This document shows, piece by piece, positions 930-7,958 of a stretch of DNA of 64,000 nt; positions within the stretch are counted from its first letter, which is position 1, and each line of letters opens with the position of its first letter. The stretch lies in IMG/VR virus record IMGVR_UViG_3300027796_000318, one strand, 5' to 3'. The DNA comes from a virus. A program made the position numbers and the translations under genes. The notes beneath the pieces were generated by a model that was given only the letters and a program-made list of their open reading frames with translations, did no database searches and was not told the origin of the DNA.

Positions 930-2642
930 TCAGAAAATCAGCAGGCCGTCGGGGCGGGCGGTGGCGTCGTTGTAGATGGAGGGGCCACCCTTCGGCGCCG
1001 GATTGCGTTCCATCAACTTCGCCGCGTCGAACATCGCCATCAGCGGGTCGATCTTCGAGTAGCCCGACGCCTGCTTGGTCACAAGAAAGGCGTTCTTCGT
1101 CGGCTCGATCCGGGCATTGCTGACGCACCAAGCCATCAGGCGCTGGCCGCAATGGCGGAATGTGCCATCGATCAGCTTGCGCTCAACGCCCTTGATCGCC
1201 CCGGTCAGGACATAGCCCTGCGAGATGCCGGCGACCTGCTGGCCGTCCTGCGTGACCTGGATTTCCGCCAGGGCATCGACAATGCCGGCCAAACCGATCG
1301 TGTCGAGCCCGACGCAATCGAGCAGCCCGGTGTCCAGCACCCGGCGGACAATCTCCATCGCGCCGTCCAGATCCTCGGGATATTCCCGGATGATCGTCAG
1401 GTCGCCGTCCTGCTCGAAATCACGGTATTCGGCGACGTTGGCCTTGCGACGCTCCAACGCCTTCGGGTGCGCCCAGGCGTGGCCCCAATGCAGCCAGCGG
1501 CGGGTTCCCTGCTCGCGGCCGATCACCGCGAGGCCGAGCAGATCGTCAGCGCCACCGCCGTCGATCCCGATCGATACCACCTCGGACCGCTCAAGGATCG
1601 CATCGAGGCTCAGGCCGGCCTCGGCCGCCGCTTCCCAGTCGTTGGCGCCGGTCCAGCGGTCGGAGCGCAGCGCCAAGCCGATCTCGACATTGAGATGCTT
1701 GGCCAGGAAGCCCCGGACGCTATCCTCGCCGTTCTCCTCGGCCTTGGAGAACTCGTCCTTCAAGAACTCCCGATCGACCGACGCCCCGAGGTTGGGGTTC
1801 GTGATGTGGAAATTTTGCGGGTCTCGGTGCCCGCCCGCGTCAAGCATCGCTTGCGGGAACTCATACAGGACCGGCAGGAACCGCTTGTTCTTGATCCTGC
1901 CATCTCGGATGCCGCGCGCATATTGCAGCTTCTGGCGCATCACGCCGGCCGGCGGGTCGTTGCTTTGGGTCGTGAGGTAGATCACGAACCCTTCGGGGCG
2001 CGAGGCAAGTCCGCCGGTCGCCTCACGCAGCATATCCTCCGCGTGCGGCTGCTTTCCAAGCAGCCACAGCTCATCAACCAAGACGCCGACTGCTTTCTTG
2101 CCGCCGACCGTCTGGCTGTCAGCGGCCACCACCTTCAGCGTCGCGCCAGTACCGCGATGCGTGATCGTCCGGAGGTGGTCCTGCACCTGGCACAGGTCGG
2201 AAAGTTCCTCGTTCTTTCGCACCATGTCACGGGCCGGAAAGAACGAGTTGTTCGCCACCTCGATCGTCGGCGCCAGGATCAGAAATTCACCAGACTCGCG
2301 CCAATTGCGGATCAGCGCCGTCAGCATGATTCCGGCGGCAATCGTCGATTTCGAGTTCTTCTTGCTGATGAGCAGCAGGAATTCACGGATCAACCGCCGA
2401 CCCGGCTCTCCGGCCGCGCCGTTGTGATCGTAGGCACCGAACACTGCGCCGACGAAATCAAACACCCAGGGGCGGCACGCCTCGCCCATCGTTGGACTAC
2501 AGGGAGCATCGACGATGCGAAGCTCGCGGAACTGCGCCAGGGCCGAGGCCGCTTCGTCCGGGAACAGCGGCGGGCAGGGGATCAAAGATTCGCCCGCGAC
2601 GATCCGGCGCTCCCAATCCGGGCAGGCAGTCTCCCAATCCAT
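930..2642 (-). CDS. terL: Terminase large subunit
   Basis: Walker A-like ISKKNSKST, Walker B VLVDELW, C-terminal nuclease motif KIDPLMAMFDA. Confidence 0.95.
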   Translation of the reverse strand: MDWETACPDWERRIVAGESLIPCPPLFPDEAASALAQFRELRIVDAPCSPTMGEACRPWVFDFVGAVFGAYDHNGAAGEPGRRLIREFLLLISKKNSKSTIAAGIMLTALIRNWRESGEFLILAPTIEVANNSFFPARDMVRKNEELSDLCQVQDHLRTITHRGTGATLKVVAADSQTVGGKKAVGVLVDELWLLGKQPHAEDMLREATGGLASRPEGFVIYLTTQSNDPPAGVMRQKLQYARGIRDGRIKNKRFLPVLYEFPQAMLDAGGHRDPQNFHITNPNLGASVDREFLKDEFSKAEENGEDSVRGFLAKHLNVEIGLALRSDRWTGANDWEAAAEAGLSLDAILERSEVVSIGIDGGGADDLLGLAVIGREQGTRRWLHWGHAWAHPKALERRKANVAEYRDFEQDGDLTIIREYPEDLDGAMEIVRRVLDTGLLDCVGLDTIGLAGIVDALAEIQVTQDGQQVAGISQGYVLTGAIKGVERKLIDGTFRHCGQRLMAWCVSNARIEPTKNAFLVTKQASGYSKIDPLMAMFDAAKLMERNPAPKGGPSIYNDATARPDGLLIF

Positions 2643-2645
2643 GGG

Positions 2646-2987
2646 CTACCTCTTCGTGTTGTCGATCGCCAGCTTCGGCGGGGCGGGGGCGGCGAACTTA
2701 CCCCGGGCCGCTTCCTTCGCCGCTTCGGCCCTCTGCTCTTTCTTGCCGGGCACGGCATCGGCAATGCGGGAGTCGGTGAAGGGCAAAACGGCCTGCATGG
2801 CCCTCAAGCGGCTGTCGAGATCGACACCATCGTTGTTGATCACCCACATGGCGAATTCCTTCGCCGTCTTGAAGACGGGCGATCCGGCCGGGGCGGCGTC
2901 AAGAACCGCCGCCATGGCTTTGATTTCCTTTGTTGCCTTGGTGCCTTTCGGACGGCCAGCGCCCGGGCGAAAACCTCCGCGCGCCAT
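2646..2987 (-). CDS. terS: Terminase small subunit
   Basis: MARGGFRPGAGRPK start motif; directly upstream of terL. Confidence 0.85.
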   Translation of the reverse strand: MARGGFRPGAGRPKGTKATKEIKAMAAVLDAAPAGSPVFKTAKEFAMWVINNDGVDLDSRLRAMQAVLPFTDSRIADAVPGKKEQRAEAAKEAARGKFAAPAPPKLAIDNTKR

Positions 2988-2999
2988 GGGGTTAGCCTC

Positions 3000-3112
3000 C
3001 AATTTGATTATTTGATTTCGGGGTGGGAAAAATCATACCGACGGAAAAATTCTACGGATGAGCCCCAACCGGTCGAAGCGCCCACCCGGGCTACTATTGA
3101 TAAACCCCCTAC
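3000..3112 (-). other. Probable cos packaging region of prophage A
   Basis: HNH-terS intergenic region, G-rich then GACCG...AATTTTT pattern typical of HK97-like cos; position-based inference. Confidence 0.5.
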
Positions 3113-3435
3113 CCCCTGAGCCTTTCGGCCCGGGCCTTGGCTGTCTTGACGTTGTGGCAGGCCTGGCAGACGAGACGGACATTGCGTGGGTCAAGGTCAG
3201 CCCCACCGTCTTTACGCTCAATGACATGGTCGCCAATCAGCTTGACGGGGGTGCCGTCAAGCTCATGCGTCTTGCCGCAGGTCTCGCACCGTCGGCCCCG
3301 CTGACGGATCAAATCGGCCCGCAGCTTTCGCCACGCATCAGACTGGTAGAACGCTTCGGCTTGTTTGGGCAATGGATGAGCGGAAGCCATCCGAATTGGC
3401 GCAGTAGTCGGGCCGAGAGTGCGGAGCTTGGCCAT
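3109..3435 (-). CDS. Packaging-associated HNH endonuclease
   Basis: CETCG...GDHVIERKDGGADLDPRNVRLVCQACHNVKT. Confidence 0.92.
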   Translation of the reverse strand: MAKLRTLGPTTAPIRMASAHPLPKQAEAFYQSDAWRKLRADLIRQRGRRCETCGKTHELDGTPVKLIGDHVIERKDGGADLDPRNVRLVCQACHNVKTAKARAERLRG

Positions 3436-3451
3436 ATCGCTATCTCAAATC

Positions 3452-3527
3452 TGGAGCCGCCTCGGGGTCACGATCCCCGCGCCTCCGGTTTACAAGGCCG
3501 GCGCTCTACCTGATGAGCTAAGGCGGC
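3452..3527 (-). tRNA. tRNA-Thr(UGU) with atypical T-loop
   Basis: 76-nt cloverleaf, GCCGCCT/AGGCGGC acceptor, loop CT-TGT-AA, encoded CCA; T-loop ATCGTGA; C31-A39 mismatch. Confidence 0.85.
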
Positions 3528-3632
3528 GTGGTCGGTGTCTTGGGTCTGGTGGCGGGATCGCCCCGCCGGGTTGTCGATAGGCGTGGTCTCGACGCCTCGT
3601 TTTACATCATGCCTTGCGGCACCCAGATCGCG

Positions 3633-3702
3633 TGGGCGGACGGACTTGAACCGCCGACCTCCTTCCGGCCCGGAAGGTGCTCTCCCAACTGAGCTACGCC
3701 CA
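3633..3702 (-). pseudogene. Degenerate tRNA-like element (Val/Ala-like; nominal anticodon GGC)
   Basis: Intact D and T arms, but a 5-6 bp acceptor, self-pairing anticodon loop CGGGCCG (no U33, no purine 37) and no CCA. Confidence 0.7.
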
Positions 3703-3761
3703 ATCACCCCGTCTGGTTCTCGACAACCTGATTACCGCACGCCTTGCGTGGCACCAGATCT

Positions 3762-3836
3762 TGGTGGAGCCTGGGGGCTCGAACCCCCGACCTTCGCGAT
3801 GCAAGCGCGATGCTCTCCCAACTGAGCTAAGGCCCC
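3762..3836 (-). tRNA. tRNA-Ala(UGC)
   Basis: GGGGCCT/AGGCTCC with G3:U70, anticodon TGC, ACCA end; 75 nt, T-arm one base short. Confidence 0.88.
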
Positions 3837-3837
3837 A

Positions 3838-3915
3838 TGGTCGGTGTGGACGGATTCGAACCGCCGGCCCTCGCGTCCCAAACGCGATGCTCTGGCCTGG
3901 CTGAGCTACACACCG
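3838..3915 (-). tRNA. tRNA-Pro(UGG)
   Basis: CGGTGTG/CACACCG acceptor, TT-TGG-GA loop, TTCGAAT T-loop, ACCA end. Confidence 0.93.
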
Positions 3916-3980
3916 TGAATTGCGCCCGCCCGCTGGCCCTGCTGGGGCCAGGAATTCCAAAAAATGTACGCTGTTTTTCA

Positions 3981-4009
3981 TTGATATAGCGTACAATGTA
4001 CGCTAAATT
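3981..4009 (+). promoter_or_regulatory. Sigma70-like promoter with palindromic operator in the spacer
   Basis: TTGATA-17-TAAATT; perfect inverted repeat TAGCGTACA-A-TGTACGCTA at 3987-4005; extra half site near 3965. Confidence 0.75.
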
Positions 4010-4062
4010 TATTTTGTCAGCGGGGATGATCCCAATGACAAAACGAAAGGAGGTGACGCGGA

Positions 4063-4131
4063 ATGAAGCTCCTGAAACTGGCAATCCTGGTTGCGCTGCT
4101 GATCTTGGCCGACACGCACGCAGCCTGGTAA
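4063..4131 (+). CDS. 22-aa hydrophobic peptide, type I toxin-like
   Basis: MKLLKLAILVALLILADTHAAW behind strong SD AGGAGGTGA; below the ORF track length cut-off. Confidence 0.75.
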   Translation: MKLLKLAILVALLILADTHAAW

Positions 4132-4195
4132 ACCAAAAGGTGGGGCCGGGAAACCGGCTCCACCGCAGGAGATAAGGACCCGCGTCACCTCCTGA
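4131..4195 (-). ncRNA. Putative cis-antisense sRNA (about 60-65 nt)
   Basis: Minus-strand TTGAAC-18-TACAAT promoter (4230-4201); ends in hairpin 4139-4164 followed by TTTT on the minus strand. Confidence 0.55.
4135..4164 (-). terminator. Intrinsic terminator-like hairpin
   Basis: GGTGGGGCCGG-GAAA-CCGGCTCCACC, 11-bp stem, AAAA on the left flank. Confidence 0.6.
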
Positions 4196-4210
4196 TGGAG
4201 ATTGTAGGCG

Positions 4211-4426
4211 ATGAAACCCGAACAGTTCAAGGAATGGCGATCGGCGATGGGCCTGTCCCAGATCAAGGCAGGGGAAGCTCTCGGACTTAGCAAGACCACG
4301 ATTGAGCTATACGAGGCGGGCCGGCGGCGGGATGATGGCCGTGCGGTCGAAATACCGCACTCTGTCGCCCTGGCTTGCGCCGCGCTGTACCACCGCATCA
4401 AGGCGTGGGGTGACGGCACCCCCTGA
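4211..4426 (+). CDS. XRE-family HTH protein
   Basis: FKEWRSAMGLSQIKAGEALGLSKTTIELYEAG. Confidence 0.88.
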   Translation: MKPEQFKEWRSAMGLSQIKAGEALGLSKTTIELYEAGRRRDDGRAVEIPHSVALACAALYHRIKAWGDGTP

Positions 4427-4485
4427 AACAGAAAGTGCGCCTCGGATCGCTCCGGGCGCACTTACCAACGATGTATTTCGGGAGA

Positions 4486-5052
4486 TTACGCGATCCGCCG
4501 CCCGTCCGCAATGGGCGGCTGCACCGTCGCATTGAAATATTGGGCCAGTCGCGCCAGTCCATCAAACAGGGCCGCCCTGATCTTGTCACCCAAGGCCGAC
4601 GCTTCGAACAGTCTGGGCGGGGCGGCATCATCGATCACCACGCTCTCGACCGCCGCCCATCTCAGGCCAGGGCCGACAGCGTTGACGGCGCCGATATACC
4701 GAGATTTGGCCCACTCCCAGGCGGCGGCCGAACAATCCGGGCGCGGGCCGGCTTTGATGACCTCGCCATAGCTGGCGGCCGGCGGGTGCCGGTCAGGGAT
4801 GGCAGCAAGGCGACGCCAGCGGTCCCAGGCTTCGATCAGCTTGATGGTGGCGTCGTACTCAACTTGCCCGATCTTGCCGGCCAGGAACAGTCGTCCGGCA
4901 GCCGATCCGGCTTCTTCGCGTTTGGCTTGTTTCCCCCCGACCGATTCGGCGCGATGCCGGAGCAGTTCATCCGGCTTCCACCGCCCCTCGACCAACTCCC
5001 CGTTGGGGTGTCGTGGACCCGGTTTCCTTGATCTACCGCGCCGCCGCGCCAT
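4486..5052 (-). CDS. Phage protein, putative late-gene regulator (DUF6456-like)
   Basis: Sits between replication and packaging modules; helical C-terminus; family recalled, not searched. Confidence 0.45.
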   Translation of the reverse strand: MARRRGRSRKPGPRHPNGELVEGRWKPDELLRHRAESVGGKQAKREEAGSAAGRLFLAGKIGQVEYDATIKLIEAWDRWRRLAAIPDRHPPAASYGEVIKAGPRPDCSAAAWEWAKSRYIGAVNAVGPGLRWAAVESVVIDDAAPPRLFEASALGDKIRAALFDGLARLAQYFNATVQPPIADGRRIA

Positions 5053-5117
5053 TTCTCACCTCACGCAATGTTATAACGTTGCATCACCACCCGGCACCGA
5101 GGCGCTTTCGCACCCTG

Positions 5118-5528
5118 TCACTCGGCCGCCTGCTGGCCCCGCCGCCAGTGCCCCAAGCCGGCGGATCTCGCGATCCGAGACCGATGGGTAGCATAATTGG
5201 GTGCAACCATCGGGTAATCGGCCGGCAGCCTCCACTTGGCGCGATACTCATCCGGGGTCAGGCCGTGGTCGGTCCGCAAGTGCCGCTTGAGCATCTTCAG
5301 CTTTTCGCCGCACTCAAGGCAGACGATCGCGTCCGGGGTCACCGATTTTTTGACCGACACTGCCGGTTGCGCCTCGGGGATGGTGGTGACCGACTGACCG
5401 AGGCCTGCGAGGGCATCATGCACAGACCGGATGAGCGAGGGCAGTTCGGTAGATGAAATGGAATTGTTCGAAACGAATGCCGAAACGACGCGCGAAACTT
5501 CGGCAGTGATCTGGGGGGTATCCGTCAT
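5118..5528 (-). CDS. mucR: Ros/MucR-family zinc-finger transcriptional regulator
   Basis: IVCLECGEKLKMLKRHLRTDHGLTPDEYRAKWRLPADYPMVAPNY signature. Confidence 0.96.
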   Translation of the reverse strand: MTDTPQITAEVSRVVSAFVSNNSISSTELPSLIRSVHDALAGLGQSVTTIPEAQPAVSVKKSVTPDAIVCLECGEKLKMLKRHLRTDHGLTPDEYRAKWRLPADYPMVAPNYATHRSRIARSAGLGHWRRGQQAAE

Positions 5529-5734
5529 GCTGATCGCCTTTTATTATTGACTCTTTACTTTTAAGTAAGTCGCAAAGGATGGTAAACGATTTTTTTATTA
5601 ACTTTTATTTATAATATGTTTTTCCAATGTTTGGAAGTCGTATTCTTTAGCGGGATTTTTCAAAAAATTGATCGCTAAAAAAGCTGATCAAAAAAATCGC
5701 CGAGCGCGCCGGCGTGTCGGCCGAGGCGGCGAGC

Positions 5735-6091
5735 ATGGCACTCAGACGCAAGGAGTGCGCCCCGCGCGCGCCGGCCGGCCACTGTGGCGCGCTGACCAAC
5801 GCCGAGGTAGTTCAGATGCTCACCACAGGGCAAACCATCAAGCAGATCGCCGAGGCGGCGGGCATCGGCGTGCGCTGCGTCAGCAGCCACATCCGACGGC
5901 ACAGGCTGGCCCCGCCTAGCCGCAAGGCCCCGGTGGAAATAAACCCTGAAAAAATTGAAATATTAGCAAAATCCGGTTTAAACGTCGAAGAGATCGCTTT
6001 GCGGCTTGGCGCATCCGTCAGCGGGGCGCGCCACGCCGCAAGGAGACATGGAATCAAGATCGCCCGAAAGCGCCGGCTCGACTGGGGATGA
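5735..6091 (+). CDS. Tandem-HTH protein
   Basis: Two HTH-like segments (TIKQIAEAAGIG, NVEEIALRLGAS). Confidence 0.55.
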   Translation: MALRRKECAPRAPAGHCGALTNAEVVQMLTTGQTIKQIAEAAGIGVRCVSSHIRRHRLAPPSRKAPVEINPEKIEILAKSGLNVEEIALRLGASVSGARHAARRHGIKIARKRRLDWG

Positions 6092-6463
6092 TCGAAAGCC
6101 CCCTCTCGCTTCCACCCGTCCCCCGGCATGACTGGGATGGCGTGCCGGGGGGGGCTATGAGATGATCGCCCGCCCCCATTTTCCTCACCACCACGCAATC
6201 GCGCTCTAAGGCCACCTGGAAGCGCATTTCGTTTCACATACCCCACCATAGCCAAAAACATCGTTTCGCCAGCCTAGCCCCCGCAAAAACTCGATTGCGG
6301 GGGCAGTTGCGTTTGGTGGCACCGCCCCCGGTCATGCTCGGCCATCACCCACCGCTCGATCCTGGCCCGGGTTGCCGGGTCCGCCTGCCGCCACATCTCG
6401 CAGCGGGCCGCCGTCCAGGCTCCCGGCTGCCAGACGGCGCCGGGGATGATGAGGGTGGCGGGG

Positions 6464-6889
6464 TCAACCGCGGATCGACCGTCGAGCATCTTCGAGCGCC
6501 TTAAGCCGGGTCCGTCGCTTCCGGGCATAGGTCTCCAACCGAACTTGCAGCTCTTCCCAGGCGGGCCACCAGCGACTGACACTGGCCTGGGTCCGCAGCA
6601 CATGGGCCACCACGTCCGCCGGCCACTCGCCAAGGCGGTCGGCATAAACCCGGATCAGAAATTTCAGGTCGAGCGAGTCTTCGGCCCGCGCCTTGGTCAG
6701 CACCCGCAGTTCGGCAAGCGCGGTGGTGATCCGGTCCTGTGGCGCCGGGGCGCAGGCTTGGCGGTGCAGGTCGATCGCTCGGTCAAGGGCGTCAATTTCC
6801 GAGGCTGGCACCTGCACACCAGGAGCGACGCGATAGCCGACAAATTCCTGATCCCACCCGAAATCGGCCGTGGTCCGGTCAGCGACCAC
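6464..6889 (-). CDS. Replication-associated phage protein (initiator partner)
   Basis: Coupled downstream of initiator; YADRLGEWPADVV...WWPAWEEL motif; start codon uncertain. Confidence 0.55.
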   Translation of the reverse strand: MVADRTTADFGWDQEFVGYRVAPGVQVPASEIDALDRAIDLHRQACAPAPQDRITTALAELRVLTKARAEDSLDLKFLIRVYADRLGEWPADVVAHVLRTQASVSRWWPAWEELQVRLETYARKRRTRLKALEDARRSIRG

Positions 6890-7958
6890 GGGCTTCAGCC
6901 ACGAGTTCGCAGACGGTGGCAACAAGGCTTCCAGTGTGGCGTCCACCTGAGCCGGGGCCAGGTCGGCCAATGTGGCGCCCGTGGTCTGAGCGGCACCAGT
7001 TGCGCCAGGTCGCTGACCAGTCGAGCTTGACCCCCTTCTGTCCGGATTGGGCGTGCCAGTGATCCCGGAACCGATCGGCGACGGTGGCCGGGTCGAGCTT
7101 AAGGTTTCGGGCGAAGGTGCAATCTTCGGCATCAGGCCACCAATCGGCCGGAAGCCGCGTTCCACGGGTTCTGCTGTTTCGGGCAATGGCATGGAGCGAT
7201 CCTTGGTCAGGCGTCGGCGCAGCCGGCGCGGTCAGGTCGGTGGGCTCGGTTTCGAAGGGGGGGGCACACAGGGGGGAATCCTCTTTTTCTTCTCTTTCTC
7301 CCTCTCCCTCTCCCTTAAGAGCGTTTTCCGCCGGAATTCCGCCGGAACAATTTCCAGTTCCGCCGGAAACAGGGGTGTGTTCCGCCGGAACATCTCCAGA
7401 CCTTTCGGCGGTTCCATCGGAAGATGTGAGTTGTTCCGGTGGAATTTCGGGGCTTTCCGCTGGAACTGAGGGGGGCCATTCGGCCGGTTTTCCTGCGACC
7501 ATCCAGGCGTCAAAGGTCGGAATTTCGAGATCAGTCAAGCCCTTAGCTTTGCGCCGGCCATTCTCTTTGCGGATTCGATCGCAGAGGCGCTCATGATGTC
7601 GGGCCTGTTTCGAGCGCCACGCTTCGCGGGCTTTCTCGGCGATCACTGGGTGATACAGCCGGCCATCGCTGCATTTGATCCAGCCGTGCAGTGCACCCGC
7701 CCGGTGCCGCTTCCAGACTCGAACTACCCGGCCATAGCCAGCGAGATTGGACAGGATTCGATCATCGTCGGGCAGCGACCCCGCGGGGACTTGATGCCAC
7801 GCCGCGCACCACAGCAGCACGCCGGCCCAGGCCGCTTCGGGATCGACCAGGGCGGCAAAATCGGAATCGCGCAGGCGCTGCACGTCGAGCTGCATGTGCG
7901 GAAAATCCCGCAGATCGCAATCGGCGGGAACGAGGGGGGCAGGGAGGGAATCAGTCAT
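6879..7958 (-). CDS. Replication initiator, DUF1376/YdaU N-terminus with DnaT-like C-terminus
   Basis: DCDLRDFPHMQLDVQRLRDS...GRLYHPVIAEKA; C-terminal FRDHW...KLDWSATWRNW. Confidence 0.85.
   Translation of the reverse strand: MTDSLPAPLVPADCDLRDFPHMQLDVQRLRDSDFAALVDPEAAWAGVLLWCAAWHQVPAGSLPDDDRILSNLAGYGRVVRVWKRHRAGALHGWIKCSDGRLYHPVIAEKAREAWRSKQARHHERLCDRIRKENGRRKAKGLTDLEIPTFDAWMVAGKPAEWPPSVPAESPEIPPEQLTSSDGTAERSGDVPAEHTPVSGGTGNCSGGIPAENALKGEGEGEREEKEDSPLCAPPFETEPTDLTAPAAPTPDQGSLHAIARNSRTRGTRLPADWWPDAEDCTFARNLKLDPATVADRFRDHWHAQSGQKGVKLDWSATWRNWCRSDHGRHIGRPGPGSGGRHTGSLVATVCELVAEARGR
7326..7465. repeat. Iteron array (phage origin) inside the initiator gene
   Basis: Seven copies of TTCCnnnGGAA at 7326, 7337, 7358, 7380, 7412, 7434, 7455; spacings near multiples of 11. 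Confidence 0.85.

Follow-up and report, generated by a model that had tools for sequence, protein, structure and literature searches.

A conserved prophage cassette with a hidden mini-ORF, an XRE regulator and an opposing promoter: a proposed sense/antisense gate at the head of the packaging operon

Among type I toxin–antitoxin systems, hok/sok and aapA1/isoA1 keep the toxin mRNA folded and inert, and bsrG/SR4 and txpA/ratA work with 3′-overlapping antitoxins. A structured RNA placed before a regulator gene of the XRE family has been described in Bartonella henselae, where the RNAs Brt1-9 (194-203 nucleotides, nt) end 10-18 nt before XRE genes (trp) in prophage-rich regions (Tu et al. 2016, PMC5387305); the Brt RNAs are very abundant, the XRE mRNA is scarce, and the authors considered these RNAs to be genus-specific (PMC5387305). 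Here we analyse a locus at positions 3963-4426 of the viral record IMGVR_UViG_3300027796_000318 (64,000 nt, the whole of which is called the window), which a sequence-only reading had taken for a type I toxin–antitoxin-like locus joined to an XRE autoregulator. Comparison with its relatives shows the locus to be a copy of a real and conserved prophage cassette. Its well-supported core is an autoregulated XRE operon, a structured leader that hides a small open reading frame (mini-ORF) and a leader-tied promoter that opposes the operon and is aimed at the packaging genes. We favour, at about an even chance, the reading that the cassette is a sense/antisense gate ahead of the late operon, linking late transcription to the expression of the cassette and the release of the peptide through a type-I-like RNA logic.

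With the four type I systems named above, the cassette shares a tiny ORF, a Shine-Dalgarno (SD) sequence held in a long-range helix, a convergent cis-antisense promoter and a prophage site. Unlike them, it has a co-transcribed XRE gene, its predicted antisense RNA mimics the SD and has no conserved end, and its peptide belongs to no known toxin family. With Brt/Trp it has in common a structured RNA of ~200 nt before a small XRE gene that lacks its own promoter, an occurrence in Alphaproteobacteria and, sometimes, multiple or tandem copies. However, no RNA homology between the two was detected, the XRE protein is of another subfamily, and the Bartonella paper does not report a mini-ORF, an SD/anti-SD lock, an operator or a convergent promoter (PMC5387305). 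A small XRE-type helix-turn-helix (HTH) protein encoded last in a short operon, with inverted repeats in the operon promoter, is also the arrangement of the C proteins of restriction-modification systems and of the anti-CRISPR-associated (Aca) proteins, although the upstream gene of the cassette differs from theirs in being an RNA-locked 22-codon ORF with an opposing promoter. Finally, face-to-face switches (coliphage 186 pR/pL, P2 Pe/Pc and pCF10 prgQ/prgX with Anti-Q) likewise have convergent promoters ~215 bp apart and an HTH repressor on one of the transcripts, the overlap permitting transcriptional interference and RNA pairing; pCF10 also has a gene for a hydrophobic peptide of ~22 aa. 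In the cassette, by contrast, the operator of the repressor lies in the repressor's own promoter, peptide and repressor share one transcript, and the target appears to be a packaging operon rather than the choice between lysis and lysogeny or conjugation. The layout of the proposed gate resembles a noncontiguous operon.

Our literature search found no paper describing the cassette. The earlier statement that no combination of RNA-level control with an XRE autoregulator was known went too far in one respect: the tandem of an RNA and an XRE gene has been published as Brt/Trp (PMC5387305), and the combination is for this reason not wholly unprecedented. In its present form the cassette is nevertheless undescribed, and what is new here is the predicted cis-antisense control of a locked mini-ORF together with an XRE autoregulator in one cassette, for which a function is proposed.

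The XRE operon and its relatives

A promoter scan of positions 3850-4650 found two promoter-like sites where 0.2 were expected. The one on the plus strand, TTGATA-17-TAAATT (3981-4009), holds within its spacer a perfect 9-1-9 palindrome, TAGCGTACA-A-TGTACGCTA (3987-4005), which was recovered by an inverted-repeat search and had already been noticed by the sequence-only reading; all five elements described there were found where it had placed them, with the boundary of one hairpin slightly shifted. An additional operator half-site, AATGTACGCT, lies upstream of the sense -35 (3963-3972, plus strand) and is part of direct repeat D5 and inverted repeat I7. In the whole window TGTACGCT has only three copies, all at the palindrome arms and this half-site. 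The operon carries the gene of a 71-aa HTH protein of the XRE family (4211-4426, plus strand), which passes the Pfam cut-offs for HTH_31 (30.7 versus 27 bits) and HTH_3 (23.9 versus 23 bits); the nearest solved relatives of its profile (C protein, ImmR, Aca1-3 and HigA2) are ordinary XRE repressors or controllers. The palindrome recurs in homologues at a like distance, since most cassettes have a CGTACnnnGTACG-type sequence 215-225 nt before the start of the HTH gene. In L138 and L056B the operator reads CGAACnnnGTTCG (CGTAC to CGAAC) together with an altered recognition helix, and the operators of L172 and L157 are different again. From the position of the operator and its co-variation with the recognition helix, XRE autoregulation is a well-supported inference, and the co-transcribed 71-aa protein is the likely binder of the 9-1-9 operator, as had been proposed. 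Because the operator of its own XRE protein sits in the sense promoter, the cassette is probably self-limiting.

The HTH protein also served to find relatives. A word-based search returned only two close ones, with the whole cassette on both contigs, and an exhaustive search extended the HTH family to 680 representatives (consensus MTPxxFKxWRK...VALACAAL). Locus scans over genomes, metagenomes and viral contigs gave ~135 loci, and inspection of the neighbourhoods, a check suggested from the outset, found the cassette with operator, SD/anti-SD helix and mini-ORF in ~35 of them, in alphaproteobacterial prophages and viral contigs; the named genome records among the loci are nearly all from Alphaproteobacteria, and carriers of the cassette include Ancylobacter mangrovi, Allorhizobium sonneratiae and Methylobacterium sp. 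R2-1, with the loci L058, L064 and L083. Common to the cassettes are the CGTACnnnGTACG operator in the sense promoter, a leader of ~180 nt, a mini-ORF of 21-32 codons, a tetraloop hairpin and the XRE gene. In cassette-less loci, the HTH gene stands behind repeated ATGCGCACnnnGTGCGCAT palindromes, without the leader. A first broad HTH alignment (A1) was too diverse to be suitable for the locus search. A scan of viral contigs for the operator pattern brought up mostly chance palindromes, L056 alone being relevant, and the window locus had no match in the phage DNA collection searched with it.

Several relatives differ in copy number or integrity. One viral contig bears two tandem cassettes on its minus strand (L056:12480-13480), whose operators (AGCGTACtcaGTACGCT and GGCGAACcctGTTCGCC) and peptides differ and whose HTHs are only ~40-50% alike; each cassette stands behind the same CCCGCC...GGGCGGG hairpin, and the pair looks like a duplication followed by a divergence of specificity. 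L158 likewise has two cassette copies. In an even sample of 151 genomes from one order, the RNA model presented below had a match in four, among them a chromosomal locus (L243:1500-1700) where a decayed cassette keeps the RNA from SD to anti-SD intact; the stop codon of its mini-ORF is lost, as is the HTH gene, in whose place a 14-codon remnant is left. Six long proteins (P0004 with 383 aa, P0043, P0045, P0078, P0080 and P0134) show four to six repeated matches to HTH residues 3-42 and are either multi-HTH proteins or gene calls running through tandem arrays.

Leader RNA, mini-ORF and opposing promoter

On the 5′ side of the leader lies a hairpin (4012-4043, plus strand; inverted repeat I4) that is present in the minimum-energy fold and in relatives. 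It is followed by the SD arm AGGAGGTGACGCGG (4048-4061), the perfect complement of the anti-SD arm CCGCGTCACCTCCT (4180-4193), both on the plus strand. This 14-nt inverted repeat is longer than any in 300 dinucleotide shuffles (12 nt at most), and in the predicted fold of RNA 4016-4215 (-95.9 kcal/mol, z = -6.9) the SD arm is closed on the anti-SD arm, in agreement with the initial suggestion that the mRNA can close over the ORF; the SD of the downstream XRE gene is free and outside the helix. Single folds of L058 and L105 have the same architecture (z = -6.6 and -6.1). An alignment of 32 cassettes was used to derive a consensus by RNAalifold, with compensatory changes in 15 of 22 pairs. Its elements are the SD/anti-SD helix, a helix of codons 3-4 (AUCCGG) with a CCGGA past the hairpin, and the hairpin directly after the stop codon. 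A covariance model (R1) then gave a second alignment for pair statistics, in which 94.1% of the cells are paired versus 81.2% in shuffles, and 17 of 22 pairs are compensatory; none of 500 shuffles attains the observed values on any measure, and slid partners leave 37-58% paired. The SD/anti-SD helix measures 14-17 bp with compensatory changes, eight of the nine pairs of the post-stop hairpin (helix 6) are compensatory, and the covariation that a conserved lock was expected to leave is strong across the ~35 cassettes.

The fold is that of the sense-strand RNA, because G.U cells number 93 (versus 49 non-standard cells of every kind), the hairpin loops of relatives read GAAA, UUCG or UACG (GNRA/UNCG) on the plus strand, and the model scores the plus strand of the window at 104 bits and its minus strand at 7 bits. 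On account of the G.U pairs and these loops, a DNA-level role of the 14-nt repeat (cos/pac site or protein-binding repeat) was rejected. The fold of the leader is borne out by covariation, and we infer from it an effect on translation. A search of Rfam with the window and 12 relatives found no family; its one match, CC2171 at 21 bits (gathering threshold 75), occurred in the window alone and was not reproduced. About 500 nt upstream of the cassette of the closest relative, sRNA-Xcc1 of Rfam matches at 53.6 versus a gathering threshold of 53 bits (L001:1147-1237, plus strand).

Within the closed leader lies a mini-ORF that in the window, according to the ORF list, has 22 codons (4063-4131 including the stop, plus strand; product MKLLKLAILVALLILADTHAAW) and starts 9 nt past AGGAGG; a GAAA-tetraloop hairpin (4139-4164) is predicted directly 3′ of its stop. 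Such a mini-ORF is found in every cassette, with 21-32 codons, a start codon (mostly TTG or GTG) located 5-9 nt past the SD and a stop just before the hairpin, for which all three stop codons are in use. The full SD AGGAGGTGA is near-invariant, the start codon is well spaced and the stop position is conserved, and we regard it as likely that the mini-ORF is translated under some condition. The peptides fall into four classes unrelated to one another. The majority are basic, alternating, non-hydrophobic 22-mers (class I, for example LKIRLRLKVKFLGWRLDLTISY); the window, L001, L140 and L138 have hydrophobic 21-22-mers (class II), L056B and L172 have 30-32-mers (class III), and L056A and L092 have helical 27-28-mers (class IV). 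The mini-ORFs of the window and L140 differ by four synonymous and eight mostly conservative codon changes. While the 22-aa hydrophobic peptide noticed at first is indeed present, its likeness to Ibs toxins did not hold up: six peptides compared with Pfam, PHROG and PADLOC gave no match and no known toxin family, most relatives have basic, non-hydrophobic peptides, and conservation of the hydrophobic peptide ends with class II. In class I cassettes (L058:2357-2422, L097, L105 and others), the peptide has two beta-strand-like halves, each encoded by one arm of an RNA hairpin, so that peptide pattern and RNA pairing limit each other.

The second promoter-like site, TTGAAC-18-TACAAT on the minus strand (4230-4201), has its -35 within XRE codons 5-7 and its -10 between the XRE SD and ATG. 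As the -35 (TTGAAN) is the reverse of conserved Phe-Lys codons, it proves nothing alone, and the informative part is the -10: TAnnnT at a spacing of 16-18 nt is found in 30 of 34 cassettes, whereas among 39 cassette-less relatives with the same -35 only 2 have it, and A-N-N-N-T-A before the XRE ATG is invariant or nearly so in the 32-cassette alignment. Of the two tandem copies in L056, the one bearing the helix has the minus-strand promoter, and the helix-less one has none. The sequence-only reading had combined this promoter with a minus-strand terminator to define an antisense RNA of about 60 nt. The promoter was found to be cassette-specific, but the terminator fared less well, since its hairpin spans 4139-4164 and not 4135-4164, was not called in a terminator scan, and is followed by a T-rich tail on that strand in only ~10 of 36 cassettes, the tail being already gone in the closest relative L001. 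Read on the minus strand of the window, the hairpin contains a single A.C mismatch and has UUUUGGUUU behind it.

From the promoter scan and the fold, a minus-strand RNA (4127-4194) is predicted that would either end after the hairpin and a U-run (~66 nt) or read on toward the tRNAs and the HNH gene. Its predicted start is at the helix edge, so that the RNA would open with a copy of the SD arm (its first 14 nt); folded as a 70-nt RNA, it gives z = -3.8. Since the tail is rarely kept, a discrete antisense RNA of 60-70 nt is plausible in the window and is no family trait. The segment complementary to the predicted RNA comprises anti-SD, linker and hairpin and leaves out SD and start codon. Because it carries a copy of the SD arm and not an SD complement, the short antisense RNA could open the mini-ORF instead of silencing it. 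No minus-strand mini-ORF with a start codon at a usable distance follows the SD copy, and a long minus-strand ORF (4009-4461) was set aside as antisense junk that is kept only because the DNA is conserved.

Position between late regulator and packaging operon

As a rule, the cassette has a late-regulator gene on one side and the packaging operon on the other, the latter on the opposite strand, and this fixed place does not fit its earlier description as a moron. At least 14 to 18 loci have packaging genes in divergent orientation to the cassette, with at least two unrelated terminase types; in loci with enough flank, the sets are HNH-terS-TerL, or Terminase_2 with Terminase_3. Because the packaging gene is often only 20-70 nt past the sense -35, there is no room for a further promoter. 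Convergent with the HTH gene are NusG paralogues (L056, L157, L166 and L169), GafA-like DUF6456 proteins (L058, L064, L086 and L159) or DUF6362 proteins; GafA, which directly activates the RcGTA structural genes, is annotated as DUF6456 (PMC9638019).

In the window, all flanking genes are on the minus strand. Downstream of the minus-strand promoter are an array of tRNA genes (Pro, Ala, Ala-like and Thr; 3452-3915) and the packaging operon (930-3435), made up of an HNH gene (3109-3435), a small-terminase-like ORF (2646-3002) and the large terminase gene (930-2642), with matches to Pfam HNH, TerL_ATPase and TerL_nuclease. Within 2600-7400, the minus-strand promoter of the cassette is the sole consensus-like promoter upstream of these tRNA and HNH genes. 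A second promoter-like site of that strand, TCGACC-16-TAGAAT (3076-3049), is located past the HNH gene and before the small-terminase-like ORF. Genes for tRNAs adjoin the cassette in unrelated loci too (L001:1567-1639, L057:1987-2060, L062:2763-2834 and L151:4037-4108). On the other side, a hairpin with a T-rich tail on the minus strand (4433-4463; inverted repeat I6) separates the XRE gene from a convergent orphan ORF of 188 aa (4486-5052, minus strand), beyond which is a Ros/MucR gene. This ORF occupies the slot of the NusG-like or GafA-like (DUF6456) genes of relatives and in the ESM Atlas falls near phage DUF6456 clusters (features 0.93, structure TM 0.51-0.56); it has no Pfam or NCBIfam match and no homologues, and pairwise BLAST to DUF6456 gave no similarity, so that it was rejected as a confirmed GafA-like regulator and stands as an Atlas lead.

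A proposed gate and its rivals

In the gate that we favour, the XRE protein would bind its own operator in the sense promoter and limit expression of the cassette, as the operator position and the co-variation with the recognition helix suggest. The first ~180 nt of the sense RNA are closed, with the strong SD, the start and the first codons paired with the anti-SD located 17 nt before the XRE start, and by default the XRE protein would be made and the peptide would not. The sigma-70-type promoter in the XRE start would fire in the opposite direction, toward the tRNA-HNH-terminase genes, and convergent transcription together with RNA–RNA pairing may couple both sides. Sense expression would damp leaky transcription of the packaging operon in the lysogen, and firing of the minus strand would titrate or remove the anti-SD and allow peptide synthesis. 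The peptide of the window could form a hydrophobic helix able to act on the membrane, and the cassette may be a toxin-like switch.

Several observations weigh against this gate. Five loci (L172, L062, L083, L074 and L063) have no packaging genes nearby, and the minus-strand promoter of L056B points into another cassette rather than an operon. From sequence, an activating and a silencing action of the antisense RNA could equally be proposed. Support for the peptide is also limited, as the codon-position test favours coding with only a weak to moderate signal (entropy 1.41 at third positions versus 1.25 and 1.18; synonymous fraction 0.136 versus 0.102 and 0.047 in the other frames); the body of the mini-ORF is itself an RNA hairpin, whereby peptide and RNA constraints overlap and the coding test is confounded. 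On the side of the late regulator, the suggestion from the Atlas that the 188-aa ORF may be the late activator of the prophage is just a lead.

A self-contained type I toxin–antitoxin system appears somewhat unlikely. The hydrophobic 22-mer would be a membrane toxin whose mRNA the SD/anti-SD helix would hold inert, the cis-antisense RNA of ~66 nt would be an antitoxin that promotes decay or tightens the lock, the XRE protein would set promoter strength, and adjacency to the late operon would be incidental. The locked SD with its covariation, the weak TTG/GTG starts of most relatives, the minus-strand hairpin with its U-run in the window and the conservative substitutions through which the hydrophobic 22-mer is kept in L001, L140 and L138 all agree with it, and in the L056 tandem copies the convergent promoter goes with the helix and not with a downstream operon. 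However, no peptide matches a toxin family, most relatives have a basic amphipathic peptide without a transmembrane helix, and the antisense terminator is not conserved; in addition, the short RNA corresponds to the SD sequence itself and leaves SD and start codon uncovered, and the position at the head of the packaging operon is conserved. What survives of the first type I interpretation is the locked SD, the mini-ORF, the convergent promoter, the operator and the co-transcribed XRE gene, without the peptide family, the terminator and the status of a moron.

An unlikely further reading, a new hybrid module, reverses the usual role of the antisense RNA, which would here be an activator. The transcript of the late promoter would strip the anti-SD from a stable, stockpiled leader, and a membrane-active or otherwise toxic mini-peptide would be made only once packaging transcription fires, serving as a lysis timer or, where terminase expression leaks, as a kill switch, with the XRE protein holding the stockpile constant.

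It is quite improbable that the cassette is a Brt/Trp-like module, in which the structured RNA of ~180 nt would be the product, an abundant trans-acting small RNA that also controls read-through into the XRE gene, while the XRE protein would regulate host or phage genes elsewhere and the mini-ORF would be incidental or vestigial. The layout equals that of Brt1-9, for the predicted leader of the window (~4016-4193) stops 17 nt short of the ATG at 4211, in a prophage context; furthermore, a Bartonella metagenome-assembled genome (L060) holds a true cassette, and a Brt-like region of another Bartonella genome gives a centroid fold with a GGGAG/CCUCCC closing helix. Yet among 41 Bartonella genomes R1 matches only L060 and, with filters off, nothing upstream of trp genes; the Trp proteins have 108-152 aa (71 aa in the window) and match the HTH profile at only 1e-5 to 1e-7, in the HTH alone; and the near-invariant SD, well-placed start and conserved stop of the mini-ORF argue for translation. 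In one Bartonella genome (G030, with L212 and sister loci), trp-like XRE genes form dense arrays, with 33 matches to the profile in 2.2 Mb and a spacing of ~0.7-1 kb within arrays. Both copies read at L212 stand behind a Brt-like region of ~200 nt with a conserved TTG-started frame of 23-25 codons (M[WR]VSRSSG.FCYVQV) and no SD.

Very improbable, lastly, is a payload with its controller, of the acr-aca or C-protein type, in which a small, variable anti-defence or superinfection-exclusion effector would be expressed in a burst on DNA entry and then shut off by the downstream HTH protein, the minus-strand promoter being a plain late promoter without antisense role: the controllers among the structural relatives of the HTH profile (C protein, Aca1/2/3 and ImmR), the variable peptide upstream of a conserved HTH and the operator within the cassette's own promoter are in line with it, but a burst effector is unlikely behind a covariation-conserved SD helix of 14-17 bp, the minus-strand promoter tracks the helix in the L056 tandem copies, and known anti-CRISPR (Acr) proteins are far larger than 21-32 aa.

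To conclude, the sense/antisense gate gives a testable model of how alphaproteobacterial phages keep their HNH and terminase nucleases silent in lysogens. The leader is a structured RNA family with covariation and without an Rfam entry, which recurs at a fixed regulatory position in alphaproteobacterial temperate phages. The concept of type I toxin–antitoxin systems may widen to include non-hydrophobic, beta-hairpin-like peptides, antisense RNAs that mimic the SD and a coupling to a protein autoregulator. Besides, the hypothesis of a hidden SD and an opposing promoter would be applicable to the unexplained Brt/Trp system, the controller of the Bartonella adhesin gene badA.

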